From NCBI GenBank assembly GCA_029864385.1, contig JAOTTL010000003.1, forward strand, positions 1 through 47,975: a DNA stretch of 47,975 nucleotides. Direction: 5' to 3'. The position numbers and the translations under genes are program-made. The stretch is from Betaproteobacteria bacterium (GTDB lineage Bacteria; Pseudomonadota; Gammaproteobacteria; Burkholderiales; SG8-41). A model generated the notes under the pieces. It searched no databases and had not been told where the DNA came from. It worked only from the letters and a program-made list of their open reading frames with translations. This document shows, in pieces, positions 3,728 through 43,946 of the stretch; position 1 is the stretch's first letter; every line of letters starts with the position of its first letter.

Positions 3728-3982
3728 TTAGCCGCAGATAAACGCAGATAAACGCAGATACAGCTCAAGAACCCTTCTGCCTTGTTGTTTCTAGCCTCCG
3801 ATCGATGCCTCTGTGTACGGGTGTGTAGTGAATGGTGAGTAGACTGACCCGTCAGTCATCACCAGTTGCTCGTCACGGATTTGATCGGCGTTCATCGGCG
3901 TGTATCTGCGGCTAATTCGCGGTTTTCAAACGCGGCTCGACTCACGATTCACCATTCACGATTCACGGAATTGATCGTGAGT
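3728..3982. repeat. Interleaved tandem-repeat hairpins (10-mer and 7-mer arms)
   Basis: TTAGCCGCAGATA 3728-3740 is the perfect inverse of TATCTGCGGCTAA 3903-3915, each continued by 10-nt units; GTGAATGGTGA 3828-3838 pairs with TCACCATTCAC 3949-3959 inside a TCACGAT-type 7-mer run. Confidence 0.85.
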
Positions 3983-3989
3983 TAGTGCG

Positions 3990-4790
3990 TCAGCCGCGCT
4001 GGAGCGCGGGCGTTAGGTGCGGCGACAGCGCCTGGAGCAGCTGGACAAAAACTTTCGGCGCGCCGGCCACGATGTTGCCGGTCTGTATGTAATCGGGCTC
4101 GCCCCGCAGGTCGCCCACCAGGCCGCCGGCTTCGGAGATGAGGAGCGAACCCGCCGCAATGTCCCAAGGGCTCAGCCCAAACTCCCAGAACCCGTCGAGC
4201 CTGCCCGCCGCCACGTAGGCGAGATCGAGGGCCGCAGAGCCCGCGCGCCGGATCCCGGCCGAGTTCTTCATTATGTCGCGCAAGATCGCGAGATAGACCT
4301 CCAGGTGCTCGAGTTGTCGGAATGGGAAGCCGGTTCCGATCAGGGCGGACTTCAGGCTCACGCGCTTGCTCACGCGCATGCGCTGGTCGTTGAGAAAGGC
4401 GCCGCGCCCGCGCGATGCGGTGAACAGATCATTGCGGCCGGGATCGTAGACGACGGCCTGCGTGACGGTGCCCTTGTGTACAAGCGCGATCGCGACAGCG
4501 TATTGGGGAAAGCCGTGGATGAAATTCGTCGTTCCGTCGAGCGGATCGATGACCCACTGGTAATCCGACTGGCCGGACGCGCCGCTCTCTTCTGCTAGAA
4601 TCGCGTGATCGGGGTAGGCTTCGCGCAGCGTGCGAATGATCGACTGCTCTGCTTCACGATCGACGTCCGAAACGAAATCGTTCGCTGCTTTCTCCTGGAA
4701 GCTGACGATGTCCAGATTGCGGGTCGCGCGGTTGATAATGCCGCCGGCACGCCGCGCCGCCTTGACCGCGATGTTGAGCATTGGATGCAT
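3990..4790 (-). CDS. suhB: Inositol monophosphatase SuhB
   Basis: [16 protein letters not shown] start, [12 protein letters not shown] and [10 protein letters not shown] motifs; divergent from trmJ. Confidence 0.95.
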
Positions 4791-4798
4791 GGTCGGCG

Positions 4799-4834
4799 AA
4801 GGAGTTTGTCAGGCTTGGCGCCGACAAACTCCTT
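4799..4834. repeat. 36-bp REP/MITE-like palindrome, copy 1
   Basis: AAGGAGTTTGTC-N12-GACAAACTCCTT; the same arms recur at 35548-35583. Confidence 0.85.
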
Positions 4835-5009
4835 AATATGATGACGTTGGATACGGTGCGGTCTTGCAGTCTGTGGCCGGTCAGGCCTCGAGGCTCGACG
4901 GGCTGCCAGGTTGATGAATGCCATATTCTAAGGGAATACAGTGATTATCGGCGGCGTTTCAGTGTCTAGCGCGCGTGATTACCGCCTATAGTCGAATGGC
5001 AGGTGCGGG

Positions 5010-5753
5010 GTGAGCGCCGCCGATAAGCTCAAAAGCATTCGCATCGTGCTTTGCGGAACGGTGCATCCCGGCAATATCGGCGCCGCCGCACGTGCATTGA
5101 AAACGATGGGGCTTGGGCAGCTCCATCTCGTCTCGCCCGTCTGTTTTCCCCATCCGCAGGCGGAGTGGCTCGCCGTGGGCGCGGTCGACGTGCTACGGCG
5201 CGCCAAGGTGTGTGCGACCCTCGACGAGGCGCTCAGCGGTGTTGTGTTTTCGGTCGCCTGCACCGCGCGCACGCGCGAGCTCGCTGTGCCGATGGTGACG
5301 GCGCGGGAGGCCGCGGCCCGCGTCATCCGGCGCGCGCGCGGCGGGACGGTCGCGCTCGTCTTCGGCAACGAAACCTTCGGGCTCACGGGCGAGGAGGTCG
5401 GCAAGTGCCGCCTGCTCGCGACGATTCCCGCCGATTCGCGCTACCCCTCGCTCAACCTCGGTGCGGCGGTGCAGGTCTTCTGCTACGAGCTGCGGCAAGC
5501 GGCGCTGGGCGATCGCGCGCCGCGCGCGAGGCAACCCCCGCCGGTGCCTCACGAGGAGGTCGAGCGCTTCTTGGCCTACCTCGAGCGGACGATGATCGAG
5601 ACTGGATTCCTCGACCCGAAACATCCCAAGCGGCTGATGCCGCGGTTGCGACGCCTGTTCTCGCGCGCGCAACTCGAGAAGGACGAGGACAATATTCTGC
5701 GCGGGTTGTTCGAGGTACTGCGGCGGCCCAAGGCTCGCTCGAAAGTTGACTAA
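5010..5753 (+). CDS. trmJ: tRNA (C32/U32)-2'-O-methyltransferase, SPOUT family
   Basis: HPGNIGAAARALKTMG, VFGNETFGLT, YPSLNLGAAVQV; conserved position between suhB and cysE/iscR. Confidence 0.92.
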   Translation: MSAADKLKSIRIVLCGTVHPGNIGAAARALKTMGLGQLHLVSPVCFPHPQAEWLAVGAVDVLRRAKVCATLDEALSGVVFSVACTARTRELAVPMVTAREAAARVIRRARGGTVALVFGNETFGLTGEEVGKCRLLATIPADSRYPSLNLGAAVQVFCYELRQAALGDRAPRARQPPPVPHEEVERFLAYLERTMIETGFLDPKHPKRLMPRLRRLFSRAQLEKDEDNILRGLFEVLRRPKARSKVD

Positions 5754-5766
5754 ATTAGTAGGATAT
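5742..5766 (+). promoter_or_regulatory. Putative IscR type-1 operator upstream of cysE
   Basis: AAAGTTGACTAAATTAGTAGGATAT resembles the 25-bp type-1 site (ATASYYGACTRwwwYAGTCRRSTAT); overlaps the trmJ stop codon. Confidence 0.6.
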
Positions 5767-5802
5767 CGTAAGCTGCGCGCCCTGATCATTGATTCGTAAA
5801 CG

Positions 5803-6622: not shown

Positions 6623-7105
6623 ATGAGACTGACGACAAAAGGCCGGTTCGCGGTTACTGCGATGATGGATCTGGCGATGCACCATGGCAGCGGTCCGGTA
6701 ACGCTGGCCGAAATCAGTGGTCGGCAAAAGATTTCGCTGTCGTATCTGGAGCAGTTATTTGGCAAGCTGCGGCGGCACCAGTTGGTCGAGAGTGTGCGCG
6801 GGCCGGGTGGCGGCTATTGCCTCGCGAAGGAGACGGGTGACTTGACGGTTGCCGACATCATCCTGGCGGTGGATGAGCCGATCGACGCCACTCAATGCGG
6901 CGGCAAGGAGAACTGCCGCGACGAGCAGAAGTGCTTGACCCACGACTTGTGGGCAACGCTGAACGAGCGCATTTTCGACTACTTGGGGTCCGTGACATTG
7001 CGCCAGCTCGTCGAGTCGCACAAAGCCAAAGAAGCGGGCGTGGCGCAGGTTCATGACATGCGAGAAGCGCCGCACAAGCGCACGCCGAGCGCCGTTTCGG
7101 CATAG
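6623..7105 (+). CDS. iscR: Fe-S cluster assembly transcription factor IscR
   Basis: MRLTTKGRFAVTAM, SLSYLEQLF, SVRGPGGGY; ligands C-x5-C-x5-C-x2-H (TQCGGKENCRDEQKCLTH). Confidence 0.96.
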   Translation: MRLTTKGRFAVTAMMDLAMHHGSGPVTLAEISGRQKISLSYLEQLFGKLRRHQLVESVRGPGGGYCLAKETGDLTVADIILAVDEPIDATQCGGKENCRDEQKCLTHDLWATLNERIFDYLGSVTLRQLVESHKAKEAGVAQVHDMREAPHKRTPSAVSA

Positions 7106-7144
7106 ATCGGCGCCGTGGAGCGAGCCCAGGCAGGGACGCTGACG

Positions 7145-8290
7145 ATGGAGCACGTTTACTTCGATCACAACGCGACAACGCCGCTCGATGACACGGTGTT
7201 CGAGGCGATGCTGCCGTACTTTCGCGGCCGCTACGGCAATGCGTCCAGCCGCCACGAGCTGGGAACCGGTGCGCGCAAGGCCGTGAATATTGCGCGCGAG
7301 CAGGTCGCCGCACTGGTCAACGTGCAACCCGCGCAGGTCACTTTTGTCTCGGGCGGGACCGAAGCCAACAATTTCTTCATCAAGGGCGCCGCGGGCTATC
7401 TCAAGCCCATGCAGATTGCTGTGAGCGGCGTCGAGCACCCGTGCGTGGCGAAACCGGCGCAGGAGATTGCGCGCCAGGGTTGGAAATTGCGCCGGCTCGC
7501 CGTCGGCGCGGACGGCCGGGCGGATCTTGCCGACGTGGACGAGGCGCTCAAGGAGCCGACCGGGATCGTATCGCTGATGCTGGCAAACAACGAGACGGGC
7601 GTAATCCAGCCGGTAGCCGAAGTGGCGGAGCGGGCGCGCCGTGCGAAAGCCTGGATGCACACCGACGCGGTCCAGGCACTCGGCAAGATCGCGGTCGACT
7701 TCGACGCGCTCGGGGTGCACGCGATGACGCTCTCCGCCCACAAGCTCTACGGTCCCAAGGGGGCCGGCGCACTGATCATGGACAAGCGGCTGCAACTTCG
7801 CCCGCTCATCCATGGCGGCGGTCATGAGCACGGATTGCGTTCGGGCACTGAGAACGTGCCGGCGATCGCGGGATTTGGCGCCGCTTGCGAGCTGGCAGCG
7901 TCACGGCTCGAGACAATCGGTCCCCGGCTCGAACAGCTGCGGGGGCGGCTCGAGCAGGGTCTGCATGGCTTAGGCGCCGTCATCTTCGGGGCACGCGCAC
8001 CGCGGATTTCCAACACGTCCTACTTTGCGTTCAAGGGCGTCGTGGGGGAAACCCTCGTCATCGAGCTCGACAAGTCCGGCTTCGCGGTAGCCCCGGGCGC
8101 CGCTTGTTCCAGCGCGAACCCTGAGCCATCAGCGACCCTGCTCGCAATGGGCGTCGAACCGGAGTTCGCGCGGGGCGCGGTACGGTTCTCCCTTGGCGTC
8201 GGCAATACACAGCAGGAAGTCGACGAATTCCTCCGGGCGCTAAAGACCGTCCTGTCCCGTTTGAAGAGCTTGACGGCGATGTCGGTCTAG
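7145..8290 (+). CDS. iscS: Group I cysteine desulfurase (IscS/NifS-like)
   Basis: YFDHNATTP, HTDAVQ, SAHKLYGPKG (PLP lysine), RSGTENV, GAACSS catalytic Cys. Confidence 0.88.
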   Translation: MEHVYFDHNATTPLDDTVFEAMLPYFRGRYGNASSRHELGTGARKAVNIAREQVAALVNVQPAQVTFVSGGTEANNFFIKGAAGYLKPMQIAVSGVEHPCVAKPAQEIARQGWKLRRLAVGADGRADLADVDEALKEPTGIVSLMLANNETGVIQPVAEVAERARRAKAWMHTDAVQALGKIAVDFDALGVHAMTLSAHKLYGPKGAGALIMDKRLQLRPLIHGGGHEHGLRSGTENVPAIAGFGAACELAASRLETIGPRLEQLRGRLEQGLHGLGAVIFGARAPRISNTSYFAFKGVVGETLVIELDKSGFAVAPGAACSSANPEPSATLLAMGVEPEFARGAVRFSLGVGNTQQEVDEFLRALKTVLSRLKSLTAMSV

Positions 8291-8312
8291 TGTTGGTGAC
8301 GAGTGAATTGAC

Positions 8313-8657
8313 ATGGCGATACAACTGACGGAAAACGCGGCGAAGCAGATCAAGGCGCAGCTCGCCAAACGGGGCCGCGGATTGGGACTGCGGGTGGGTG
8401 TAAAGACCGTTGGCTGCTCGGGCTACGCTTACACCTACGACTATGCCGACGAAGTTCGCGCTGGCGATCAGCTCTTCGAGGCGCACGATGCCAGGCTCGT
8501 GATCGATGCGAAGAGCGTGGAATTTCTGGAGGGCTCCACGCTCGACTTCGTCAAGGAAGGGCTAAAGCAGGTGTTCAAGTTTCATAACCCAAACGTTGAT
8601 GCGACCTGCGGCTGCGGCGAGAGCTTCAGCGTCCGGACGGAAGACAGTAAACGGTAA
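8313..8657 (+). CDS. iscA: A-type Fe-S carrier (IscA/SufA)
   Basis: GCSG and CGCGESF motifs. Confidence 0.9.
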   Translation: MAIQLTENAAKQIKAQLAKRGRGLGLRVGVKTVGCSGYAYTYDYADEVRAGDQLFEAHDARLVIDAKSVEFLEGSTLDFVKEGLKQVFKFHNPNVDATCGCGESFSVRTEDSKR

Positions 8658-8719
8658 ACGGTAATCGGCGAAGCGCGGTGAAAACGATGTGGGTTGCGTC
8701 CATTCATCATTCACGCATT
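8646..8719. repeat. Degenerate 7-mer tandem-repeat hairpin at the iscA/sufB junction
   Basis: AGTAAAC-GGTAAAC-GGTAATC-GGCGAAG, then CATTCAT-CATTCAC on the other side; contains the iscA stop codon. Confidence 0.55.
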
Positions 8720-8731
8720 TGAGAAAAAGTA

Positions 8732-10165
8732 ATGAGCAGCGTACTGGAACATCTGGTCAATCAGCCCTACCAGCACGGTTTCGTGACCGACATCGAGTCG
8801 GACACCGCGCCCAAGGGGCTGAACGAGGATACGATCCGGTTCATTTCGGTGAAGAAAAGCGAGCCGGAATGGCTGTTGGAGTTCCGCCTCAAGGCGTACC
8901 GCCACTGGCTCACCATGCAGGAGCCCAAGTGGCCGAACGTGAGGTACCCGAAGATCGACTTCCAGGACATCATTTACTACTCGGCGCCCAAGCCGAAGAA
9001 GCTCGCGAGCATGGACGAGGTCGACCCGGAGCTGCTGCGCACCTTCGAGAAACTGGGCGTGCCGATGAACGAGCGGGCCAAGCTTGCCGGGGTGGCGGTG
9101 GACGTAATCTTCGACTCGGTGTCGGTCGCGACCACCTACAAGCAGAAACTGGCCGAGGTCGGCATCATCTTTTGTTCGATCTCGGAAGCCGTGCGCGAGC
9201 ATCCCGAGCTGGTGCGGAAGTATCTGGGCACCGTGGTGCCAACCGGCGACAACTACTACGCGGCGCTCAATTCCGCGGTCTTCACCGACGGCTCGTTCTG
9301 CCACATCCCGAAGGGCGTCAAGTGCCCGATGGAGCTCTCGACTTATTTCCGCATCAACACCGAGTCTTCCGGGCAGTTCGAGCGGACCCTCATCGTCGCG
9401 GAGGAAGGCGCTTCGGTTTCCTACCTCGAAGGCTGCACGGCGCCCAAGTTCGACAGCAACCAGCTTCACGCGGCGGTGGTGGAGCTGGTCGCGCTCGATG
9501 ACGCCGAGATCAAGTACTCGACGGTCCAGAACTGGTACGCCGGCGACGAGAACGGCGTGGGCGGGATCTACAACTTCGTGACGAAGCGGGGGCTCTGCAA
9601 GGGTGTCAACTCCAAGATCTCCTGGACCCAGGTCGAGACCGGCTCTGCGATTACCTGGAAGTATCCCTCCTGCGTGCTGCTGGGCGAAAACTCGATCGGC
9701 GAGTTCTACTCGGTCGCGCTCACCAACCATCACCAGCAGGCGGATACCGGTACCAAAATGGTGCATATCGGCAGCAACACGCGCAGCCGGATCATCAGCA
9801 AGGGCATCTCAGCGGGCCAATCGAACAACAGCTACCGAGGCCTGGTGAAGATCGGCGCGCGCGCGGAAGGCGCGCGTAACTTCTCGCAGTGCGACTCGAT
9901 GCTGATAGGCGCGAAGTGCGGCGCCAACACCTTCCCGTATATTCAGGTGCACAACAACAGCGCCAAGGTCGAGCACGAAGCGACGACGTCCAAGATCGGC
10001 GAGGACCAGCTGTTCTACCTCGCGCAGCGCGGCATCGGTGCGGAAGAAGCGGTGTCCATGATCATCAACGGGTTCTGCCGCGACGTATTCCAGCAGCTGC
10101 CGATGGAATTTGCCGTGGAGGCGACCAAGCTGCTTGGCCTCAAGCTTGAAGGGAGCGTGGGATGA
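8732..10165 (+). CDS. sufB: Fe-S cluster assembly protein SufB
   Basis: [50 protein letters not shown]. Confidence 0.97.
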
Positions 10166-10938
10166 CCCGACCGGACTCAAGAATTCTGCTCGAGGTGAAA
10201 GGGCTCCACACCAACGTGGCCGGGGTGGAGATCCTGAAGGGCATCGATCTCACCGTGCGGGCCGGTGAGGTGCACGCGATCATGGGGCCCAACGGCTCCG
10301 GGAAGAGCACGTTCGCCAAGGCGCTCGCGGGGCATCCTGGCTACAAGGTGACCGCTGGCACGGCCACCTTCGAGGGACGGAACATTTTTGAGATGGCGCC
10401 TGAGGATCGGGCCCGGGCGGGTCTGTTCCTGGGCTTCCAGTATCCCGTGGAGATCCCCGGGGTGTCGAACACCGCGTTCCTGCGGCTTGCCTACAACACC
10501 GTGCAGGGCGCCCGCGGCAAGGACGAGCTCGACCCGCTCGAATTCGACGATTACGTGCGCGAGAAGATGAAGCTGCTCGACATGGATGTGGGCTTTCTCG
10601 ACCGCAGCGTCAACGATGGCTTCTCTGGCGGCGAGAAGAAGCGCAACGAAATCCTGCAGATGGCGCTGCTCGAGCCGCGGCTCGCGATCCTCGACGAGAC
10701 GGACTCGGGGCTCGACATCGACGCGCTGCGCGTGGTCTCGGGCGGCGTGAACCGGCTGCTCACGCCTGACAATGCGGTGGTCCTCGTCACGCATTACCAG
10801 CGCCTGCTCAATTACATCGTGCCGGATTACGTGCACGTCATGGAAGGCGGCCGCATCGTCAAGACGGGCGGCAAGGAGCTTGCCGTCGAGCTGGAAGCGC
10901 GGGGCTACGACTGGATCAAGGGGAAAGCGGCGGCATGA
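10162..10938 (+). CDS. sufC: Fe-S cluster assembly ATPase SufC
   Basis: [49 protein letters not shown]. Confidence 0.97.
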
Positions 10939-12245
10939 ACACGGCGGTTGGCGCGACGCATCCCTACATCGAGGCCCTGCTGAAGGGCTGCGAGCCTGGG
11001 CACGACCGACCCTCCTGGCTCGGCGAGCGGCGCGCGGCTGCGCTCGAGCGCGCAAATGCGCTCACGGTTCCGACCACGCGCGACGAGGAGTGGCGCTTCA
11101 CCGACATCACGCCGTTGACCCGCGTGCCGTTCCGGGCGGCAGACGCAGCATCGCGCCCGGGCACAACGGAGATCGAGCGCTTCATCGCGCCGGAAGCCGC
11201 CGTGCGCCTGACGTTCGTGGACGGCACATTTGCCCCTGAGCTGTCGGTCAACGCGGGCTTGCCCTATGGGGTGGTGGTCACCAACCTTGCTGCCGGGCTC
11301 CTCACGCACGGCTCTGTGATCGAACAGCATCTTGCGCGCCACGCGCCGTTCCAGCAGGACGTGTTCGTGGCACTGAATACCGCGCGGTTACACGATGGCG
11401 CGCTCGTCTGGGTTGCAAAGGACCAGCGGTGCCCGACGCCCGTTCAGTTGCTGTTCCTCTCGACGCAAAAGGAGACGGCTACCTACCCGCGCTGCCTAGT
11501 CCTGGCGGAGGCGGGGGCTGACCTCACGCTGATCGAGGATTACGCGGGGTTGACCGACGGGGCGTATTTTACCGACGCAGTGACCGAGGTTGCCATCGGC
11601 GATGGCGCGCGGGTGCGGCACGTGAGGCTGCAGCGTGAGGCGGGCAGTGCGTTCCACATCGCCACCTGCGCCGTAGGGCTTGCGAAGGATGCCCGTTACG
11701 CTTCTCACGCCATCACGCTCGGCGCGCGCATTTCGCGGCACAGCCTCAACGTGAGGCAGAACGGCGAGGGCGTGGAGGCTCATCTCGATGGACTTACGCT
11801 GATCGCAGGGCGGCAGCTGGCGGATACGCATACCGTGCTCGACCACGGCAGGCCCAACGGCAGGAGCCGGCAGCTGCACAAATGCATCGTCGGCGGCGCG
11901 GCGCACGCAGTCTTCGACGGCAAGATCGCGGTGGCGCCGGGCGCCCAGCTCACCGACTCTGCGCAAGAGAGCCGCAACCTGCTGCTCTCGGACAAGGCGC
12001 ACGTGGACACAAAGCCGCAACTCGAGATTTTTGCCGATAACGTGAAGTGCGCGCACGGTGCGACGGTTGGACAGCTCGATGCCGAACAGCTGTTCTATCT
12101 GCGGAGCCGGGGGCTGTCGCAGCAGAGGGCGCGCAACCTGCTCACGTACGCCTTTGGCGCAGAGGTCATAGACCGCATACCCGTCCCCTCGCTCGTCGAG
12201 GAGCTTGAGGAAACCGTGCTCGCCGAGATCCAGAGCGCCGAATGA
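10935..12245 (+). CDS. sufD: Fe-S cluster assembly protein SufD
   Basis: [42 protein letters not shown]. Confidence 0.95.
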
Positions 12246-13507: not shown

Positions 13508-13536
13508 AAGGCGATGAACGGCATTGGTTTTGGGTC

Positions 13537-14025: not shown

Positions 14026-14048
14026 AGGACAACATGACTAGATTTAGT

Positions 14049-14677
14049 TTCTCTTGGCGCCTTGGCGGTTAGTTAACTGGATTTCGAAGATGCCGAAGAT
14101 CGCTGAAATAGAGCCGACGCCGAATCCCAACGCAATGAAGTTCGTCTTGCGGGAGCCGCTCACGTGGGGGATGTCGCGCTCGTTCGACACCGCCGAGCAG
14201 GCCCAAAGCGATCCGCTCGCGTCCGCCCTGTTCGATATCGAGCACGTTACGAACATTTTCTACGTGGATCACTGGATCACCGTGACGCAGGACGGGAAGG
14301 GCGACTGGCAGGAGCTGATGCGCAAGCTCGCGGTGCCGATCCGCGAAGCGCCTTCGGCCGACGCCGACTCGGCCCGCCATGCGGTCCACGCGGAAACGGG
14401 CGCCGCTCTGGAGAATCTTCCGGATGCCGACCGGGAGCGGCTCTCTCGTATCAACGCGCTGCTCGACGAGCAGGTGCGCCCGTATCTGCAGGGCGACGGC
14501 GGCGACCTCTACGTCGTCGGCCTGGAAGGCAACCGCCTCACGGTGCACTACCAGGGGGCCTGCGGCAGCTGCCCGAGCTCCATCTCCGGCACGCTCACCG
14601 GCATCGAGAGCCTGCTGCGGCCGATCGAGCCCGACATCGAGCTCGTTGCCGTGTGAATCGCCGAGACGCCGAGAGAA
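14049..14677. repeat. 22-bp imperfect inverted repeats (8-nt period) bracketing the Nfu gene
   Basis: TTCTCTTGGCGCCTTGGCGGTT 14049-14070 versus AATCGCCGAGACGCCGAGAGAA 14656-14677: 18/22 complementary. Confidence 0.7.
14090..14656 (+). CDS. Nfu/NifU-like Fe-S carrier (Nfu_N plus NifU-C domains)
   Basis: EPTPNPNAMKF N-domain; VRPYLQGDGGD...GACGSCPSS C-domain. Confidence 0.93.
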   Translation: MPKIAEIEPTPNPNAMKFVLREPLTWGMSRSFDTAEQAQSDPLASALFDIEHVTNIFYVDHWITVTQDGKGDWQELMRKLAVPIREAPSADADSARHAVHAETGAALENLPDADRERLSRINALLDEQVRPYLQGDGGDLYVVGLEGNRLTVHYQGACGSCPSSISGTLTGIESLLRPIEPDIELVAV

Positions 14678-14699
14678 GCAAAAGCAATTTGTCTTTGGC

Positions 14700-15020
14700 A
14701 TGTCTGATTGGGTCACCGTAGCCAAGGCGGGTGAAATCGCGCCTGGCGGCTTTCGTACCGTCGATGTGGATGGCGTTAACGTTGCCGTGTTCAACCTCGC
14801 CGGTGAATATTTCGCCCTCGAAGACGTGTGCACCCACGATGGCGGCCAGCTGACCGGCGGCATCGTCGAGGGTGAGGAGATCATTTGCCCGCGGCACGGC
14901 GCGAGCTTCTGCATTCGTACCGGCGCTGCGCTTTCCGCACCGGCATACGAGCCAACGGTTAAGTTCCCCGTGCGCGTGGAAAACGGCGAGCTTCAGGTGC
15001 GGGATGACCGCTGGGACTGA
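14700..15020 (+). CDS. Rieske-type [2Fe-2S] ferredoxin
   Basis: CTH...CPRHG ligands; ATG at 14700 (MSDWVTVA). Confidence 0.93.
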   Translation: MSDWVTVAKAGEIAPGGFRTVDVDGVNVAVFNLAGEYFALEDVCTHDGGQLTGGIVEGEEIICPRHGASFCIRTGAALSAPAYEPTVKFPVRVENGELQVRDDRWD

Positions 15021-15026: not shown

Positions 15027-15122
15027 TTGACCGGTGATCCGTAACCAGTGCGCGGCCACGCAAATTTGTCAACGGCCTTGGGCGGTAGCAGCGACCAGTC
15101 ACTGTTCACCGGTCACGAGTAA
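15027..15122. repeat. 7-mer tandem-repeat hairpin
   Basis: TGACCGG-TGATCCG-TAACCAG versus CCAGTCA-CTGTTCA-CCGGTCA; TGACCGGTGA 15028-15037 is the perfect inverse of TCACCGGTCA 15106-15115. Confidence 0.75.
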
Positions 15123-15136
15123 CGCTGTTCGACTAA

Positions 15137-27604: not shown

Positions 27605-27723
27605 GTGATGAGTAATGGTGATGAGTGATCGTGATGAACAATGGTGATAGGTAACCTGCTTTCTATCATCAACTCTCATCGCCTGTAACCATCACCACTT
27701 CTCATCACCTGTTCTCATCACCT
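27605..27723. repeat. 13-mer tandem-repeat hairpin
   Basis: GTGAT cores at 27605, 27618, 27631, 27644 and complementary TCATCAC-type cores at 27663, 27676, 27689, 27702, 27715; both arms have a 13-nt period. Confidence 0.85.
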
Positions 27724-29476: not shown

Positions 29477-29965
29477 TCAAGAGCGCTTGAGAGCAGCAGG
29501 TGAGACAAGGACGCTGAACTGCTCGCACCAGATGACCACCGTTTCGTAGCGGGACAGGTCGACCCCGGCGGGTATCGCATAATTCTGGCTACCCTTGAAC
29601 GCCTTGAGCCGGCCCAGATCGACGTACATTAGTCTTGCCACGTTGGTCGACGGCGTGATGTTCTTCTCGGGCACGAGATACACGTGGAATTTCGGTCCCG
29701 GCCCGACCTCGAAATCGCTCTCGAGATGCAACAGGTCCTGATAGACGGTCACGCCGCCCTTGCCGTAGTGGATCGGGTCGGAGGGGTTTGCGTGTATGAA
29801 CGTGCCGGTCGCGACGACCTTCCTTGCGCCGGATCTCTCGACTTTTTCCATCGCGACGATATCAGCGAGGAAGATGTAGGGGTAGACGAAGATCCCGAGC
29901 GCAAATCCGGCGGCCGTACCGAGCAGGCCACCGGCGATAAAAACGAGGACGTATCTAGAACGCAT
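29477..29965 (-). CDS. DM13 domain protein with N-terminal membrane anchor
   Basis: GPGPKFHVYL, LGRLKAFKGSQNY, VIWCEQFSV. Confidence 0.9.
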   Translation of the reverse strand: MRSRYVLVFIAGGLLGTAAGFALGIFVYPYIFLADIVAMEKVERSGARKVVATGTFIHANPSDPIHYGKGGVTVYQDLLHLESDFEVGPGPKFHVYLVPEKNITPSTNVARLMYVDLGRLKAFKGSQNYAIPAGVDLSRYETVVIWCEQFSVLVSPAALKRS

Positions 29966-29988
29966 CTCAAAAATATAAAAACACCATT

Positions 29989-30082
29989 AACCGCAGATCA
30001 ACGCGGATAGAAAACCGAAATAAACCTATACAATTCTTTCTTATCGGCGTCAATCGGCGTCAATCGGCGTTCATCGGCGGTT
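29989..30082. repeat. 10-mer tandem-repeat hairpin
   Basis: AACCGCAGATCAACGCGGAT versus ATCGGCGTCA x2, ATCGGCGTTC, ATCGGCGGTT; same unit as 3728-3915. Confidence 0.85.
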
Positions 30083-30106
30083 GTATTACGGCTTTCCGAG
30101 CGACTT

Positions 30107-33100
30107 CTAGCTCAGCGCGGTAAATGCCTCGCGCACGGCGGCGACGCGGGCGCCCATGTCGGGCAGCTCGGCCTCGATGCGCAGCCGGTCCGGTCCGGCG
30201 AGGCGGTAGTTGCGGCGTGTTTGCTCCAGGTTCAGCACCTTTATCGGCTCGATCGGCGGCTTCGGCACGAACTGAATCTGGACTGCCGAGTCGGTGGCGT
30301 CGACGCGAGCGATGCCGAGCGGCCTGCCCAGAATGCGCAGGCGGTGGCATTCCACCAGCGCGCGCGCCGCGTCGGGCAGGGTGCCGAAACGGTCGATCAG
30401 TTCCTCGCGGAGCTGCTCGAGTTCCTCGGAGTTGTCGCAATTGGCGAAGCGCTTGTAGAGCACGAGACGCTCGTGCACGTCGGAGCAGTAATCATCAGGG
30501 AGCAGCGCCGGCACGTGCAGATTGATCTCCGTGGTGACGCCGAGCGGCGCAGCGAGATCCGGCTCGTGGCCCTGCTTGAGCGAGCGCACTGCGCTGTCGA
30601 GCATGCGCACGTAGAGGTTGAACCCCACTTCCTGCATCTCTCCGCTCTGCGATTCGCCCAGGACCTCGCCCGCGCCGCGGATCTCGAGATCATGCATTGC
30701 GAGGAAAAAGCCCGAGCCCAGCTGCTCCATCATCTGGATCGCTTCCAGCCGTTTCCTGGCCTGTCCGGTGATGGCGCCTTCATCGGGCAACATCAGGTAG
30801 GCGTAAGCCTGGTGGTGCGAGCGCCCGACCCGACCCCGCAGCTGGTGTAGCTGCGCCAGTCCGAACTTGTCCGCGCGGTTCATGATGATGGTATTCGCGG
30901 TCGGAATGTCGATGCCGGTCTCGATGATGGTGGTGCAGAGGAGCACGTTGAAGCGTTGCTGATAGAAGTCGCGCATCACGTGCTCGAGCTCGCGTTCGCG
31001 CATCTGGCCATGTGCGATACGGATGCGGGCCTCGGGCAGCAGCTTCACCAGCGTCTCCTCGACGTGCCGGATGGTGTCGATTTCGTTGTGCAGGAAGTAG
31101 ATCTGTCCGCCGCGGTTGAGCTCCCGCAGCACTGCTTCGCGAATTAGCGCCTTACTGTGCCGCAGGACGAAGGTCTTGATCGCCAGGCGGCGCTCGGGGG
31201 CGGTCGCGATCACCGAGAAGTCGCGCAGGCCCTCGAGCGACATCGCGAGGGTGCGCGGGATGGGCGTTGCCGTGAGTGTCAGCACGTCGACCTCGGCCCG
31301 CAGCGCCTTCAAGCGCTCCTTCTGCCGCACCCCGAAGCGATGCTCCTCGTCCACGATGACGAGTCCCAGCTTCTGGAACTTGACGTCGCGCTGCAGCAGC
31401 CTGTGGGTGCCGATCGCGATGTCGACGCGGCCGTCGGCGAGGCCGGCCATTGTCGCGGCCTGTTCCTTGGTGGTGCGGAAGCGGGAGAGCTCCGCGATCC
31501 TCACCGGCCAGTCGGCAAACCGGTCGGAAAATGTGTTGAAATGCTGCTCGGCGAGCAGCGTGGTCGGGACGAGCACGGCAACCTGCTTGCCGTCGGCGAC
31601 GCCGACGAAGGCCGCCCGCAGCGCGACTTCCGTCTTGCCGAAACCGACGTCGCCACAGATCAGCCGGTCCATGGGCTTGCCGCTCCCGAGATCCTCGATC
31701 ACGGCCTTGATGGCGGCGGCCTGGTCGGCCGTCTCCTCGAACGGGAAGCCGTCGCTGAACGCCTCCACGTCGTGCGGGTTTACCTGGAAGGCATGGCCGT
31801 GGCGCGCTGCGCGCTGCGCGTAGAGGTGGAGCAGCTCGGCCGCGGTGTCGCGCACCTGCCTGGCAGCCTTGCGCCGCGCTTTTTCCCACTGCCCGCTGCC
31901 AAGCTCGTGCAGGGGTGCCGCGTCCGCTGGCGCGCCACTGTAGCGGCTGACAAGGTGCAAGCTGGAGACAGGAACGTAAAGCTTGGCGCCGCGCGCGTAC
32001 TCGAGCACCAGGAATTCCGTCTCGCCCTCGCTGAGGTTCATGTTGACGAGGCCCTGGTAGCGCCCGATGCCGTGCTGTTCATGCACAACTGGATCACCGA
32101 TATTGACCTCCGAGAGATCGCGCAGCATGCCCTCCGGCGTGACGCGCACCGCGCCTTCGCGCTCGCGGCGCGGGCGTGCCTGAAGGGCGTAGAGCTCGTT
32201 TTCCGTGACGATCGCGAGCGGCGGCGCAGCCAGCGTGAAGCCCATGTGCAACGAACCGACCGCAAGCATGAAGGGCTCTGTCGATGCGGCGAACTGGGCA
32301 TACTCCTGCGCGAGCGCGGGAACGAGGCCGTGTTGAGCGAAGTACTCGAGCATCGTTTCACGCCGGCCCGGGCCCTCGGCGAGGACCAGCACGCGGCCTT
32401 CGAATGAAGCAAGGTACGAGCGCAGGCGGTGCAGAGGGTCGTCGGCCCGCCGCTCCACCGCCAGCGGCGGAAGCGGTGATGTCACCGCTGCCTCCGCTTG
32501 CGGGTTCAGGGTTCCGGGTTCAATGTTTAAGGTTCCAGGTTTCATATTACTGGTTTCAACTTTGAACTCGGAACTTTGAACTTTGAACGTTGAACCCAAG
32601 CCCGCGAGCTCGATGCGGGCGAAGGGTTTAATGGCGCCGAAGAACTGATCGGTCGTCAGGAAGAGCTCCTGCGGCGGCAGCACCGGATTGGTGCGGTCTC
32701 CTCGCAGCATGGCGTAACGCGTATGCGTATCGCTCCAGAACTGCTCGATGGCCTGCTGCAGGCCGGGCTGGACGCAGAACAGCGTGTCCGCCGGAAGGTA
32801 GTCCGTGAGGACCGCGGTGTTGTCGAAGAAAAGCGGCAGGTAGTACTCGATGCCGGCGCTCCCGACGCCCTTGCTCACGTCCTTGTAGATGGGGCTGCGG
32901 GAGGGGTCGCCTTCGAATGTCTCGCGGAATTTGCGGCGAAAGCGCGTCTGTCCCTCTTCGTCGAGCGGAAATTCCCGAGCCGGGAGGAGACGCACCTCAT
33001 TGACCTTGTAGATCGAGCGTTGCGTGTCCACGTCGAAGCTGCGAATGCTCTCGACGATGTCGTCGTCGAGCTCGATGCGGTAGGGCAGGGTGCTGCCCGT

Positions 33101-34788: not shown

Positions 34789-34796
34789 CGCAGTTC

Positions 34797-34909
34797 GTAA
34801 TGAGTAATGGGGGATGGATAATGCGAAAGAGCCGATGCGCGGCCCGCGCAACACCCATCACCCATCACCCATCACCCATCACCCATCACTCATCACTCAT
34901 CACTCATCA
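34797..34909. repeat. 7-mer tandem-repeat hairpin at the amrA/amrS junction
   Basis: (CCCATCA)5(CTCATCA)3 at 34854-34909 opposed by GTAATGA-GTAATGG-GGGATGG-ATAATGC at 34797-34824. Confidence 0.9.
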
Positions 34910-35533
34910 CGCTTCCTCGCGCCACTTGGTCACGACATAGCGCGAGAGCTTCACGTCGCTGTCCCAGAAGTCGGGCGGTAGCCCGGCCTTGTAGCGCAGG
35001 TGCGCGAGAAATTCAGCGGGATCATCGAATTGTTCCCACACCTGGGGCAGGAACGTACCCGTATGGTAGCCGTACTGGAACACGATCCCGTCGACGCCTG
35101 GCCGCAGCTGTCGAACGGCATCCTGCTCGTCGGCCACGGTCATTGGCTCAAGAGCGGAAAGCACCGAGATTTCGAGCGCCACGGCAGCAAACTCGCCGGG
35201 CGCCAGCGGCTTGAACCGGGGATCGCGGAAGGCGGCGGCCACCGCGTTCGCCTTCACGTCCTCGAGCAACGTGCGGTGCGCTCGCAGCGTGCCGATGCAG
35301 CCGCGCAAACGCTTGCTCGCCATGAGCGTGATGAAACAGGCGCCCGGTTGCCTGAGCCAAGGGAAGTCATCGCTTGCCGCGTGATCGACGCCGAGTTCGT
35401 TGGCGATCGCCGAGCGGGCGACTGGCAGCAGCACCTGCCCCGCATCCTGCGGCCAGGGTGACGGCCCGCTCGAGTGCAAGACGACCCGGCCCGATGCGGC
35501 GGGTACCATGATCGGGTCCGACTTATCGGGCAT
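34907..35533 (-). CDS. amrA: AmmeMemoRadiSam system protein A (AMMECR1 domain)
   Basis: LRGCIG, AAFRDPRF, EISVLS, TFLPQVW. Confidence 0.93.
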   Translation of the reverse strand: MPDKSDPIMVPAASGRVVLHSSGPSPWPQDAGQVLLPVARSAIANELGVDHAASDDFPWLRQPGACFITLMASKRLRGCIGTLRAHRTLLEDVKANAVAAAFRDPRFKPLAPGEFAAVALEISVLSALEPMTVADEQDAVRQLRPGVDGIVFQYGYHTGTFLPQVWEQFDDPAEFLAHLRYKAGLPPDFWDSDVKLSRYVVTKWREEA

Positions 35534-37600: not shown

Positions 37601-38110
37601 ATGAGAATCGGGCAGGGGTTTGACGCACACGCGCTGGTGGCGGGTAGAAAGCTCGTCATCGGCGGCGTGCCGGTTCCTTTTGATAAAGGACTCGCCGGGC
37701 ACTCGGATGCCGATGTGCTGATCCATGCCGTTTGCGATGCCCTGCTGGGCGCGGCCGGCCTGGGAGACATCGGCGCGCACTTTCCGGACACCGACCCCCG
37801 GTACCAGGACGCCGACAGCCGGGCCTTGCTGCGGGAGGTGGGGCTGCTGCTGGGGCAGGAGCGCCTGCGCGTCGTCAACGTGGACGCCACGGTCATCGCG
37901 CAGGCGCCGCGACTGGCGCCACATCTCCCGGAGATGCGCGCGAATCTCGCCTCGGACATTGGCATCCCGCCGGATTTCGTCAACATCAAGGCCAAGAGCA
38001 CCGAGCGCCTCGGTTTTACCGGGCGCGGCGAGGGCATCGCGGCTGAAGCGATAGCACTGATCACGTGGGTAGATCCAGAAAACGCCGAAACAACCCGGCC
38101 CCGGGCCTGA
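37601..38110 (+). CDS. ispF: 2-C-methyl-D-erythritol 2,4-cyclodiphosphate synthase
   Basis: [37 protein letters not shown]. Confidence 0.97.
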
Positions 38111-38203
38111 GGGCGCCGGGCCCGCACCAGAGGGCGCCGGGCCCGCGCCAAAGGGCGTCAGGTCCGCGCCAGATTGCTCCGGGCCCGCGCCAGAGCGCTC
38201 CGG
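38109..38203 (+). repeat. 21-bp tandem repeat, about 4.5 copies
   Basis: GAGGGCGCCGGGCCCGCRCCA-like units starting at 38109, 38130, 38151, 38172, 38193. Confidence 0.85.
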
Positions 38204-38754: not shown

Positions 38755-40983
<2,229 letters not shown>

Positions 40984-41286
40984 AGTGGGATTCTGGTACA
41001 AAAACCGGAGGGATTACAGGAGGCGGACATCGATCGGATACAACCCCGGGAGCGGATCATGACACCCTTGAGCACCCCCGACAAGCTGTTTAAGCGCCCC
41101 TAACAGGATGAAACGCGCGTGCGGTGCGGGCTGGCACGATTCTTGGCCCATAGTGCCCTCTCTGATTTACCCTGAAACTGGCTAATCCAACACTTTTCGC
41201 ATGTTCCCCGCCAAATCGTCGCTTCAAATTCACGCGGAATCGACATACCCATAGCGCATTCAGGTGCAACGTAGCTGCGAGTAAGT

Positions 41287-42053: not shown

Positions 42054-42105
42054 CCAAGCGCTGCAGCCGATCACAGGACGCGGCGGCTGAGCGCCAACGT
42101 TGAGG
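42048..42105 (+). other. attC-like integron recombination site (58 bp)
   Basis: GCCTGAC (R''-like, contains the stop codon), GCGCTgCAGCCG pairing with CGGCTGAGCGC with one extra base, ending GTTGAGG (R'-like). Confidence 0.6.
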
Positions 42106-42191
42106 GTGTAGAGAACGCCATGCCGTAACTTGCTTGAACGGCCGTACCCTCTACTGCTTTAGGGTCCCTTCTTCAGAAGGGAGAACGTGAG

Positions 42192-42476
42192 ATGCGATCT
42201 CTTATCATTACCGTCATAACGCTCTTTCTCGCTGTTACAGTAGGGTGTGCTGGTAATCCGAACAGCTCTTTAGCGATGCGGTGCGACAATGGCCTGGAAG
42301 TGGCCTATAAAGAACTGGACTTCGCCAAGGCCAATGGTTTTGACGGCACCGTGGAATATTCAAAAGCGGCCAGTTTGCTGGCGGCCGCAAAGATCCAGTC
42401 GGAATTTGGCAAATATCCCAACTGTATAGACAAGGTCCAGCGAGCCAGGGCTTATATCGTTAAATCAAGGAAATGA
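42192..42476 (+). CDS. Small hypothetical lipoprotein
   Basis: GGGAG RBS, lipobox TVGC, two further Cys, helical; visibly lower GC than neighbours. Confidence 0.75.
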   Translation: MRSLIITVITLFLAVTVGCAGNPNSSLAMRCDNGLEVAYKELDFAKANGFDGTVEYSKAASLLAAAKIQSEFGKYPNCIDKVQRARAYIVKSRK

Positions 42477-42496
42477 TAAGCGGCTCGATTCGCAAG

Positions 42497-43810
42497 CTAA
42501 ACCGTTCGCGCCAAAGGCAGCTCGACCCGCGCCTGCAAACCTCCGCCATCGCGCGGCGCGAGTTTGACGTCCCCGCCGTGCATGTGGGCAATGCGCTCGA
42601 CGATCGCGAGCCCGAGCCCGGTGCCGCTTCCTGAGCGCGCGTTATCCTTGCGCGTGAAGGGCCGCATCATCTGCTCGACCGCTTCCACAGGAATGCCCGG
42701 TCCGCGGTCGAGTACGTCGATAACGGCCCGGCCGTTTTCGGCCGCTGTCCGGACCTCGACTTCGCCATTGCCGTGGCGGAGCGCGTTGTCGATCAGGTTG
42801 GCGATCAACCGCTGGACGGCCAGGGGGCGCAACGGCAGAGGCGGCAGCTCCGCGAGCTGCAGTTTGAGGGGCTTGCCGCCACGCGCATAGCGCTCGCCAA
42901 TGCCGTGCACGATGGCGTTGAGGTCGCCATCGTTGACGACGGCCTCTCCCTGCCCCGCGCGCGCGAAGTCCAGAAACTGATTGATCGCAGCATCGATGTC
43001 ATCGATGTCTTGCACCATCCCGGAGGTAAGCGCAGCGTCCTCCTGGTTCGGGAGCATCTCGATGCCGAGACGGATGCGTGAGAGCGGCGTGCGAAGGTCG
43101 TGAGACACCCCGGCCAGCAGGAGCGCGCGCTCGTCATCGGCGCGCTTCAGGTCCGCCGTCATTTGATTGAACGCGCCCGCAAGCGTGCGGATCTCCGTGG
43201 GCCCGGTCTCGACAATCGGGGGCGGGGTGCGCCCGCGGCCCACCTCCGCTGCGGCGCGGCTCAGCGCCTTTAGCGGGCGGTTAACGCGCGCGACAATCAA
43301 GGTCGCGCCGATGAGAGAGAGCGCAAGCACCAGCGCGCCCCATCCGATCCAGCGCAGGGGGTCGTTGAGCTCCAGCCGCGAGCGCGGAAGGAAGACCCAG
43401 TACTCGTCCCCGTCGATTTCAAAACTGACCCACGTGCCACGTACCCCGTCACGGCTCACGGCGAGGCGGGTGCTCGTGCCGAGCTTGCGCTTGAGGTCGT
43501 CCTCGACGATATTGAGGAACGGCCGGTCTGGCAGGGGCGCGGTGCGCTCTTCGGGCTCGCCGACGTAGACCTGGATTCCCTCCTCGCGGGACAGATCCTG
43601 CAACAGTGCCAGACGTTTCGAAGGCTGCGCGCTAATCAGCGCCGCGCGTGTGAGGTTGACGACGCTCACGATCTGCTGCGCGACCCGGTGCGCGCGTGGC
43701 TCACGCTCGGTCACACGCAGAATCGCGAGCCAGGCGAGGTGCGCGACGATCATCACCAGCGCGATGAGCAGCACGCTGCGCCAGAGCAGCGTGCGTGGCC
43801 ACAATGTCAT
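42497..43810 (-). CDS. envZ: EnvZ-like sensor histidine kinase
   Basis: Two TMs, HAMP, GVSHDLRTPL, NLIDNA, DRGPGI, GTGLGLAIV; ATG 43810 (MTLWPRTLLWR). Confidence 0.9.
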   Translation of the reverse strand: MTLWPRTLLWRSVLLIALVMIVAHLAWLAILRVTEREPRAHRVAQQIVSVVNLTRAALISAQPSKRLALLQDLSREEGIQVYVGEPEERTAPLPDRPFLNIVEDDLKRKLGTSTRLAVSRDGVRGTWVSFEIDGDEYWVFLPRSRLELNDPLRWIGWGALVLALSLIGATLIVARVNRPLKALSRAAAEVGRGRTPPPIVETGPTEIRTLAGAFNQMTADLKRADDERALLLAGVSHDLRTPLSRIRLGIEMLPNQEDAALTSGMVQDIDDIDAAINQFLDFARAGQGEAVVNDGDLNAIVHGIGERYARGGKPLKLQLAELPPLPLRPLAVQRLIANLIDNALRHGNGEVEVRTAAENGRAVIDVLDRGPGIPVEAVEQMMRPFTRKDNARSGSGTGLGLAIVERIAHMHGGDVKLAPRDGGGLQARVELPLARTV

Positions 43811-43818
43811 GACGGAGC

Positions 43819-43946
43819 GTGACGGGTGATAGGTGACAGGTGACCGGAAAAAACCGTGACCGGTGACCAGTAACCGGTGACCGGAAACATCCAAATTGCC
43901 GATTTCGTCAAATCACTCGCCACTCGTCACTCGTCACTCGTCACTG
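43819..43946. repeat. 7-mer tandem-repeat hairpin at the ompR/envZ junction
   Basis: Two blocks of four GTGACCG-like units (43819-43846, 43856-43883) opposed by about five TCACTCG units (43913-43946). Confidence 0.9.

Follow-up and report, generated by a model that had tools for sequence, protein, structure and literature searches.

Hairpin elements at the gene junctions of the window

The DNA analysed here (the window; 47,975 nucleotides, positions 1-47,975 of contig JAOTTL010000003.1 in assembly GCA_029864385.1) is contig C71 of a 3.93-Mb betaproteobacterial genome bin of 347 contigs with 62.7% G+C, and its SufB finds its nearest matches in uncultured Burkholderiales/Betaproteobacteria bins at 87-92% identity. 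Pfam scans revealed ordinary housekeeping genes, which in window order comprise a TPR protein, an inositol monophosphatase family gene and a SpoU-family methylase; iscR, iscS, iscA, sufBCDS, nifU, nfu, a Rieske protein and ydjM; a lipid-related cluster, a glycosyltransferase, DUF1015, DM13 and mfd; a radical-SAM/AMMECR1/Memo trio, ispD, ispF and rpoD; and a RisS-type kinase with an OmpR-type regulator, and a DndB-like gene. Between these genes, and once inside mfd, lie short elements built from arms of tandem units. We propose that the elements are probably mobile cassettes with tandem-unit inverted ends, together with cargo-less derivatives of them, in two related classes that we term G and H.

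Class G arms consist of a cap, TNAGC, and three units of 8-10 nt (core CRCNRA, for example CGCAGATAAA), and class H arms of about four 7-nt units, or 13-15-nt compound units, often with a GTGA core. A full-length class G element holds one gene for a GxxExxY/PD-(D/E)XK nuclease, and a full-length class H element holds one four-helix-bundle gene of the 23S rRNA intervening-sequence (IVS) type. Most copies are short hairpin-forming derivatives without cargo, and all eleven window elements are cargo-less.

A first-pass annotation had described the window elements as a family with one hairpin architecture, and Tandem Repeats Finder and direct reading placed short-unit arrays at every coordinate that it named (Table 1). 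The common architecture was borne out for part of the family, since 5 of the 10 folded window elements lay far beyond all or nearly all shuffles, while two were marginal and three were not distinguishable from shuffles. Direct reading also confirmed stop codons inside arrays for iscA (8655-8657), AMMECR1 (34907-34909, called amrA in that annotation) and ompR (43927-43929). On the other hand, the two arrays around nfu, which had been taken as one pair (14049/14656), stand in reverse of an otherwise unvarying polarity. We read them as two separate degenerate elements, the first of which is a solitary or degenerate half element. Rfam gave no match in the window at gathering score.

Table 1. Tandem-unit elements of the window. 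Array positions are given in brackets; z is the folding score.
Positions	Element	Strand	Setting	Fold	Details
3727..3915	class G composite element		between TPR gene (+, stop at 3721) and inositol monophosphatase family gene (-)		left arm: cap TTAGC and CGCAGATAAA x2.8 (3733-3760; 10 nt); right side (~3882-3915): ATCGGCG x2, then ATCTGCG and GCTAAT
3820..3878	class H 7-mer hairpin (array 3822-3877)		nested in loop of 3727..3915	-23.1 kcal/mol, z -1.84 (marginal)	units GTGTGTA GTGAATG GTGAGTA ... ATCACCA GTTGCTC GTCACGG
3935..3988	7-mer array CGATTCA x4.3 (3938-3967) and short complementary arm GATCGTGAGTTAGTG			z -3.69	sole window copy with TCAC arm first
8647..8720	GTAAACG x3.1 array (8647-8668)			z +1.33 (not a significant hairpin)	weak CATTCAT/CATTCAC stretch ahead of sufB
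14053..14068	class G right-arm-type 8-mers, CTTGGCG x2		upstream of nfu		unit family CGCCAAGA, which flanks GxxExxY genes in relatives
14659..14712	class G left-arm-type 8-mers, CGCCGAGA x2 (14659-14674)		begins 3 nt past nfu stop	z -0.09	single weak partner TCTTTGGC
15027..15125	class H 7-mers		between Rieske gene and ydjM	z -0.85	GTTGACC GGTGATC CGTAACC, spacer, CAGTCAC TGTTCAC CGGTCAC GAGTAAC; outer arms paired in the minimum-free-energy structure despite the low z
27605..27723	class H 13-mer hairpin, GTGATGAGTAATG x3.4 / TCTCATCACCTGT x3.8 (27605-27648 / 27674-27723)		convergent junction, glycosyltransferase (+) / DUF1015 gene (-)	-46.7 kcal/mol, z -5.81	
29955..30110	member of ~155-nt class G family resembling miniature inverted-repeat transposable elements (10-nt arrays 29989-30009 / 30043-30079)		left outer segment overlaps called DM13 start (29965); TAG of right-hand terminal CTAG is the mfd stop codon (30107-30109)	z -2.98	CTAGAAC..A-rich..TTAAC cap, CGCAGAT-type units, 32-nt spacer, ATCGGCG x4, ..TTCTAG
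32503..32595	class H 7-mer hairpin, GGTTCAA x5.6 / TTTGAAC x6.0 (32503-32541 / 32554-32595)	-	in frame in mfd, residues ~344-375 of 1,173; linker between UvrB-interaction domain and domain D3	z -3.16	
34797..34910	class H 7-mer hairpin (34797-34826 / 34852-34910)		AMMECR1 / radical-SAM junction (both genes -); ends 8 nt ahead of radical-SAM start	-60.5 kcal/mol, z -5.45	transcript sense: TGAGTGA x3, TGGGTGA x5, GC-rich loop, CCATCCCCCATTACTCATTAC; unequal long arms, 8.4 copies vs ~4
43819..43945	three class H 7-mer arrays		between ompR and RisS-type kinase gene; last ~16 ompR coding bases and ompR stop within third array	z -1.88 (marginal)	GTGACNG x3.7, GTGACCG x4.1, TCACTCG x4.7; one terminator-like match, 43878-43859

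Unit families and arm structure across the genome

We found 3,990 tandem arrays in the genome at a Tandem Repeats Finder score of at least 30. Those of period 7 (780/932), period 10 (328/485) and period 13 (312/361) were mostly intergenic, and all three periods were over-represented; coding-type periods lay mostly inside genes, with only 20 of 324 arrays of period 12 and 8 of 90 of period 15 being intergenic. The intergenic arrays of period 7-10 or 13 numbered 1,496 and fell on 883 of the 3,288 gene junctions, and array clusters spanned 13% of intergenic bases. Convergent junctions were occupied in 190 of 458 cases (41%), co-directional ones in 597 of 2,399 (25%) and divergent ones in 96 of 431 (22%).

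A reverse-complement partner within 200 nt was present for 420 of the 1,496 intergenic arrays, as against 45 direct partners and 22 and 17 in two scrambled-orientation controls. The share with a partner was largest for 13-mers (203/255), followed by 9-mers (92/180), 10-mers (110/320), 7-mers (122/628) and 8-mers (21/113), indicating that the hairpin architecture is real but not universal, least so for the 7-mers. A looser k-mer partner test was discarded because its control values were nearly equal to the signal.

The units do differ between sites, as the first-pass annotation had remarked, but they belong to genome-wide families with conserved cores, and the 8-10-mers carry a conserved terminal cap. 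Most 7-mers consist of GTGA and three variable bases (GTGAATC in 73 arrays, GTGATGG in 47, GTGACGA in 45 and GTGACGG in 39). The 10-mers are CGCAGATAAA (75 arrays), CGCCGAT variants or CACACGGAAA, the 13-mers consist of GGTGATG and six further bases, and the 9-mers are GGACACAAA or CACAGAGAA. On both strands the A/G-rich form makes up the 5' arm and the T/C-rich form the 3' arm, with a polarity of 18:0 for GTGA-first, 24:0 for the 13-mers, 17:0 for CGCMGAT, 14:0 for CACACGG, 13:0 for CACAGAG and 9:0 for GGACAC. Mixed-polarity pairs numbered 0-8 per family, and the GTTC family was the exception (5:4). Stop codons in all three frames were considered as a rule behind this polarity, the periods 7, 10 and 13 all being 1 mod 3; by inspection the rule fits the GTGA, CGCAGATAAA and 13-mer units, and it was rejected as a general one since the 9-mers and CACACGG carry no stop.

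Arm length was regular. CGCMGAT arms have two full units and a third core in 152 of 161 cases, and CACAGAG arms have three cores in 29 of 32, after a matching cap whose G and C are conserved at 100%; GTGA arms have four cores in 126 of 215, with a tail reaching 14. The five cap positions T-T-A-G-C of the CGCMGAT arms were conserved, position by position, in 126, 109, 137, 131 and 159 of the 161 arms. Within this family, seven copies, including the window copy at 29955-30110, align over ~155 nt in the order CTAGAAC, A-rich segment, cap, three CGCCGAT units, a conserved 35-nt spacer, three ATCTGCG units, T-rich segment and GTTCTAG, the CTAG at both ends being part of the inverted repeat.

The first-pass annotation had further suggested that the elements target the ends of genes, and for this the genome-wide data gave little support. 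An array overlaps the adjacent gene end at 113 of 1,026 gene-end sides; the other gene-end distances were close to those obtained when arrays are placed at random within the same spacer (0-5 nt: 133 observed, 134 random), and elements also lie in frame inside genes. Gene starts were avoided, with 36 arrays within 5 nt against 89 expected. This pattern fits broadly targeted insertion filtered by selection rather than an aim at stop codons.

Nesting was observed in 18 of the 136 inverted pairs, which enclose other arrays. At one further locus (C272:4200-5150, L012), about five different left arms are stacked with the matching right arms opposite, in the manner of a Russian doll, and a 130-aa C-terminal remnant of DDE_Tnp_1 lies at the centre of the stack.

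Two families of cargo genes lie between the arms

The first-pass annotation had remarked that similar arms flank GxxExxY genes (PF13366, PD-(D/E)XK; TIGR04256) and four-helix-bundle genes (PF05635/TIGR02436, the 23S-rRNA-intervening-sequence family). We surveyed both families in this genome and 30 relatives, counting a gene as flanked when the inverted match between its two flanks scored at least 14. Among the 25 GxxExxY genes, 23 had inverted flanks, as had 25 of the 30 four-helix-bundle genes, against none of the 25 and 30 reversed-sequence controls. The suggested link thus held, with periods broader than those suggested: arms of GxxExxY genes have periods of 8, 9 or 10 nt and about three copies, and those of four-helix-bundle genes have periods of 7 or 13-15 nt (8 at two loci), about four copies and a different unit at almost every locus. 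Beside two four-helix-bundle genes the arms reach 13-15 copies.

In this genome the GxxExxY genes number two, each enclosed by inverted 10-mer arms, and there are two four-helix-bundle (TIGR02436) genes. One of the latter lies between GTTCAAA and GAACCNG arrays; the second is interrupted by TAG and has no clean arms. At C294:15700-17000 (L018), the four-helix-bundle frame runs without a stop through the 13-copy right arm into the next gene (336 aa), which may reflect either over-calling of the frame or a fusion by read-through.

A phylogeny of the GxxExxY proteins followed the arm type. Those with CRCMGAT arms, seven proteins of five genomes, grouped in a single clade (support 85/82, and 100/100 when its sister is included), and the pair with CACAGAGAA arms formed a second (98/99); L144 and L150, which have very long branches and are probably wrong-strand translations, are left out of this reading. 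The nearest solved structure for the four-helix-bundle protein was that of the related XCC0516 (2gsc, E 2.5e-9), and sequence comparison gave no solved-structure relative for GxxExxY.

Other enclosed genes were considered as candidates for new cargo and were rejected. Eighteen of the 19 open reading frames enclosed by long-gap inverted pairs were scanned with Pfam, and 16 were ordinary genes between neighbouring junction elements, including glyoxalase, hydrolases, RraA-like, PlsY and TauE genes. The others were one DDE transposase remnant, one known GxxExxY cassette and, as the 19th, a spurious 66-aa call inside the second GxxExxY gene.

Gain, loss and survival of elements

Cassettes with the same arms occur in different contexts. 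The four-helix-bundle cassettes L160 and L161 encode proteins that are 84% identical and share AGGATTG/CTCAATC arms, and their flanks are unrelated; two other four-helix-bundle cassettes were orthologous. Empty sites in relatives, which the first-pass annotation had proposed to look for, were present at two places. The first is the junction upstream of a 411-aa gene on C298, which has no spacer in G027 and G029, a repeat-free spacer in G016, CGCCGAT arms around 170 nt without cargo in G009, and a full GxxExxY cassette in this genome. The spacer of the G009 hairpin showed no significant cargo similarity in a tblastn search with 50 cargo proteins.

The second place is the mfd linker, which was 30-57 nt long and repeat-free in all 11 other-family relatives with both sides recovered (one further locus was incomplete). 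In the genus it was 66-177 nt in most members and 45 nt in G012. Five species have GTTCAAA/GGAACC units at this site, and the rest have other units or palindromes (CATCCCT, CAGTCGT, GGGACTC and others), with a copy number that varies between species. The insertion was in frame in 13 of the 14 recovered genus segments, the exception being the 83-nt segment of G005, possibly owing to the boundary estimate. Turnover was also apparent against the nearest relative, G013, whose Mfd is 89% identical: all three neighbouring junctions differed, one carrying another unit, one having an element where this genome has none, and one holding a 338-nt composite in place of the 144 nt found here. Together with the cargo-flanking arms elsewhere, the empty sites give good support, for most of the elements, to the proposal of the first-pass annotation that they are empty versions of a cassette.

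Besides mfd, the gene for which relatives were compared, deep arrays in frame were also seen in other genes of this genome. They lie in Lnt, between its two domains (C12:16202-17704); in DnaE, between the NTPase and finger domains (C244:18325-21873); in a second DnaE-like polymerase, inside the HHH domain (C323:3232-6372); at two sites in UvrD (C190:22644-24941); at four sites in a 2,004-aa UvrA-like frame (C134:2964-8978); in a CCG/ferredoxin protein (C65:7828-9084); and in a GDP-mannose dehydratase (C316:10210-11289). These in-gene arrays are 7-mer and 14-mer and mostly lie between Pfam domains, with the canonical domain order on both sides. They are stop-free on the coding strand, as any array in an open frame must be, and by inspection the GTGA-type copies have the complementary TCAC arm on that strand.

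Distribution among relatives and in other phyla

The GTGA pattern gave 2-470 matches in each of the 18 genus relatives and was absent from 10 of the 12 other-family relatives; the other two had 4 matches each, not above their controls. The CGCMGAT 10-mer pattern was found in 14 of the 18 genus relatives and in none of the 12 others, and the five genomes with GxxExxY proteins of the CRCMGAT clade had the five highest CGCMGAT counts (78-114). Counts of both array types and both cargo families intercorrelated across the 18 genomes, G010, which supports no claim here, being left out (rho 0.64-0.83; kin are not independent).

Arms of the same kind occur next to sufB in other phyla. In a Pyrinomonadaceae record the sufB stop is followed directly by four GTGACAR units, which a 10-nt loop separates from four YTTGTCA units, and in a Chlorogloeopsis record CACAGAT-type 10-mer arms come after the sufB stop. 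Since the 80 SufB-anchored loci of other lineages contained no cargo genes at E 1e-6, the cross-phylum statement concerns arm architecture only.

Relation to known repeats and mobile elements

Intergenic heptamer repeats occur elsewhere in bacteria, the short tandemly repeated repetitive (STRR) sequences of cyanobacteria being one type. The accessible text of Rehm et al. 2015 (PMC4692102) describes GGGAATC heptamers in Xanthomonas and GGGGAYT heptamers in Nostoc; those of Xanthomonas form 70-75 pairs that are always convergent, lie near the upstream gene, vary in length and are mostly transcribed, and the paper discusses quadruplexes and cites a slippage hypothesis. TAACTGA repeats in Beggiatoaceae, cyanobacteria and Bacteroidetes, with a proposed role in translational control, appear in the available part of MacGregor 2015 (PMC4679880). 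As far as these texts go, the elements here share with such heptamers the tandem 7-nt units, a strongly intergenic location nearer the upstream gene end, and length variation between relatives. The convergent pairing in Xanthomonas matches the fixed polarity of our elements (18:0 for GTGA-first), although only 122 of the 628 seven-mer arrays are clearly paired here. The heptamer papers describe one unit per genome, whereas many unit families coexist here, and the available portions of those papers contain no report of cargo genes, capped 8-10-mer arms, 13-mers or in-frame copies. Paired heptamer repeats are already in print for Xanthomonas and Nostoc. Our literature search, whose scope lay outside subscription journals, database family notes and supplements (those of PMC4692102 and PMC4679880 may list relevant loci), found no paper that ties tandem-unit arms to these cargo genes.

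The hairpin doublets of repetitive extragenic palindromes (REPs), known as REPINs, and their REP-associated tyrosine transposases (RAYTs) offer a second comparison. From the accessible text of Bertels and Rainey 2011 (PMC3116915), both systems comprise hundreds of intergenic hairpin doublets with few protein genes flanked by the same repeats; in both, protein and repeat type co-vary and new copies nest in or beside old ones. According to the same text, however, REPs are single palindromes of 20-40 nt, whereas the arms here are 3-4 tandem units, and the REPIN-RAYT protein is a Y1 transposase, whereas the genes flanked here encode a PD-(D/E)XK nuclease and a four-helix bundle; unlike REPINs, most of our elements have spacers that are not conserved. 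The first-pass annotation had also listed RAYT genes among possible cargo, and this was not upheld: the genome has two Y1_Tnp (PF01797) fragments at contig ends, with no tandem arrays beside either. The two (C243:1-420 and C270:1-420) are the same IS200/RAYT-like fragment next to a GGGGTCTGACCCC-type palindrome and may belong to a separate REP-like system without tandem arrays.

In the part of the literature available to us (PMC10969869), MITEs (miniature transposable elements with inverted repeats) resemble our elements in being small and non-coding with inverted ends and many copies, the closest likeness being the 10-mer subfamily with a conserved interior, and Rickettsia palindromic elements share with them the in-frame copies in housekeeping genes (here mfd, dnaE, uvrD and lnt). 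Unlike MITEs as described there, the elements here have ends made of tandem units, and most copies share only those ends.

Resemblances of design extend further. The ends of the transposons Tn7 and Mu contain several tandem protein-binding sites, and the long inverted arms of Drosophila Foldback elements consist of tandem subrepeats. Inverted ends of 3-4 repeated sites, variable arm length, and forms with and without an internal gene are common to these and our elements, a likeness that may well be one of design only. Closer in gene content are the 23S rRNA intervening sequences, which Ralph and McClelland reportedly found in 1993 to carry a four-helix-bundle open reading frame; rRNA intervening sequences are excised by RNase III. 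In both systems a PF05635 family gene is enclosed by a long stem (here 25 of 30 such genes, with no copy in the window), and the difference is that those sequences lie in rRNA, whereas every copy examined here is located either between protein genes or within one. The accessible text of Zhang et al. (PMC3936711) describes 23S_rRNA_IVP genes wedged inside cas operons and reads them as functional partners.

Alternative explanations

The elements might be MITEs of a conventional DDE transposon, in which case an IS5-like transposase acting in trans would recognise the capped ends and the cargo genes would be passengers, for example addiction or defence genes. The ~155-nt 10-mer subfamily has the long inverted ends and conserved interior that this calls for, and the CTAG at both of its ends is presumably an IS5-type target. 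A DDE_Tnp_1 remnant lies at the centre of the nested stack on C272, and on C315 a 10-mer array lies 55 nt downstream of a 462-aa DDE gene. However, the C272 copy is only a C-terminal fragment, and among the seven DDE_Tnp_1 matches in this genome none was flanked on both sides, apart from that nested remnant, and none of the five longer genes was; a parent with a transposase and the same ends was therefore not found. The GxxExxY phylogeny, moreover, tracks arm type, which would not be expected of interchangeable passengers. We regard this explanation as unlikely.

Selection by the host for RNA or DNA structures, whether bidirectional terminators, hairpins that stabilise RNA or are processed by RNase III, or arrays of regulator sites, also seems unlikely to us as the explanation, and it would be compatible with a mobile origin. 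It would account for the enrichment at convergent junctions, the avoidance of starts and the A/G-rich 5' and T/C-rich 3' arms on both strands, and the 10-mer family has A-rich outer flanks that imitate bidirectional terminators. Most Xanthomonas heptamer repeats, according to the available text, are transcribed and often conserved in position (PMC4692102). Yet only 1 of 19 matches to the intrinsic terminator consensus (GC-rich stem, 3-8-nt loop, T-run) in 39 kb overlaps an element, and the totals were below those of shuffles (8 versus 14.9; 11 versus 15.4). The orthologous junctions of the nearest relative have other units, composites or no unit at all, other-family relatives have the same operons without elements, and a regulatory role is difficult to imagine for the in-frame copies within mfd, dnaE, uvrD and lnt.

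A third explanation, which we consider improbable, is slippage in place at pre-existing hairpins, with quasi-palindrome (template-switch) correction mirroring the expansions and no mobility at all. Slippage is the hypothesis for heptamer over-representation cited in PMC4692102, as far as its accessible text goes, and it would suit the long and unequal arms (as at 34797-34910 and beside the two four-helix-bundle genes with 13-15 copies) and the interspecific differences in copy number at the mfd site. It accounts for drift in length but not for origin: identical units and caps recur at dozens to more than 100 sites, the number of cores per arm is fixed and the polarity invariant, and the arms travel with cargo into new contexts and occur with the same units in other phyla.

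Finally, artefacts of a fragmented metagenome assembly (347 contigs) are very improbable, even though contigs assembled from four public DNA runs tend to break at the elements, with depth piling up there and chimeric joints between unit arrays, because 18 other genomes of the genus, and other phyla as well, have the same architecture, in-gene copies leave the reading frame intact, and a contig of another run covers 31625-34519, including the mfd element, with no differences (weak support, as it is possibly from the same sample). A joint from 34788 to 34917 in X4 hints at a different allele and gives nothing firm on polymorphism.

Probable mobile cassettes and how they may move

The reading of the elements as mobile cassettes with cargo-less derivatives is the one that we prefer. 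Judged from sequence comparison, mobility is supported by the change of context between like cassettes, the presence/absence series, the nesting, the in-frame insertions and the conserved MITE-like subfamily.

Several observations weigh against this reading. The spacers of different copies are mostly unrelated (similar pairs 22/528, 4/300, 2/561 and 11/666), so that most copies would not be simple copy-and-paste products like MITEs or REPINs, and 506 of the 628 seven-mer arrays are without a clear inverted partner. A target-site duplication could not be defined, since the CTAG ends belong to the inverted repeat and all relatives are too distant for a base-level empty site. Arrays and cargo do not always coincide: G013 has 77 triple-CGCMGAT matches and no GxxExxY match at 92% completeness, and G003 has 103 GTGA-pattern matches and no four-helix-bundle match. 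As all four counts are intercorrelated, the correlation between arrays and cargo is not specific. In this genome, the four-helix-bundle cassette on C294 scores below 14 because its arms share only the 4-nt core GTTC/GAAC, and 171 canonical 7-mer units stand against only two four-helix-bundle genes, so recognition of units by the resident proteins cannot explain all copies. A tblastn search with 50 cargo proteins found one extra cargo fragment (C192:17568-17639), and the decay of full cassettes is thus not documented. We know of no transposase-like activity for either cargo family, and the genome-wide gene positions come from a crude gene caller of our own.

A mechanism can nevertheless be sketched. 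The elements would move as DNA, with the cargo protein binding its own tandem units at about one protomer per unit, in a manner comparable to multimeric transposases on Tn7 or Mu ends, and in class G the PD-(D/E)XK nuclease would cut at the cap. New copies would land mainly in the loops of existing elements and in short spacers beside stop codons, and selection would then purge insertions that break starts, promoters or reading frames. In the transcript, the 27-30-bp stem would be a substrate for RNase III, and the cargo mRNA would be excised from the host operon in the way known for rRNA intervening sequences, which would make insertion into operons tolerable. As a whole this mechanism is tentative, and we would expect it to fail in some part sooner than to hold throughout.

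Other features of the window

Several observations concern the window itself. The genes at 6662-14656 form one co-directional run that combines Isc-type genes (Rrf2 regulator, cysteine desulfurase, IscA) with Suf-type genes (SufB, C, D, S), NifU-N and Nfu, and three of its junctions hold elements. Between ispF and a LigT-like phosphoesterase gene lies a different array (38095-38203), made of 5.2 copies of the GC-rich 21-nt unit CCGGGCCCGCGCCAGAGGGCG; it is unlike the AT-containing 7-13-mers, and its left edge is hit by three terminator-like matches. The rpoD frame (38755-41001) is 748 aa long and its region 1.1 begins at residue 138, which points to an over-called start or to an N-terminus of unusual length. 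The DndB-like (PF14072) gene at the window end (46576-47706) hints at a DNA-modification or defence locus.

Implications

Elements of this kind occupy about a quarter of the gene junctions in this genome and break its assemblies. They supply stop codons and C-terminal residues to ompR, AMMECR1, iscA and mfd and add peptide segments to essential replication and repair proteins, so that annotation, binning and protein alignment are affected in many uncultured lineages. Over-representation of heptamers in bacterial genomes has been noted for decades and has no accepted origin. It is conceivable, if on balance doubtful, that GxxExxY and 23S-IVS-type four-helix-bundle proteins are the mobility or maintenance proteins of an unrecognised, cross-phylum group of selfish cassettes whose ends are their own binding units, that cargo-less descendants of these cassettes make up the STRR-type heptamer and decamer repeats, and that the same cassettes are the source of the rRNA intervening sequences bearing open reading frames and of the in-frame peptides of Mfd, DnaE and UvrD. 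If this is true, the cargo-less descendants would be the intergenic repeats of cyanobacteria, xanthomonads, acidobacteria and others. The link between repeats and cargo provides a testable model for the origin of the repeats, the function of two abundant small gene families and the origin of the rRNA intervening sequences that carry open reading frames.

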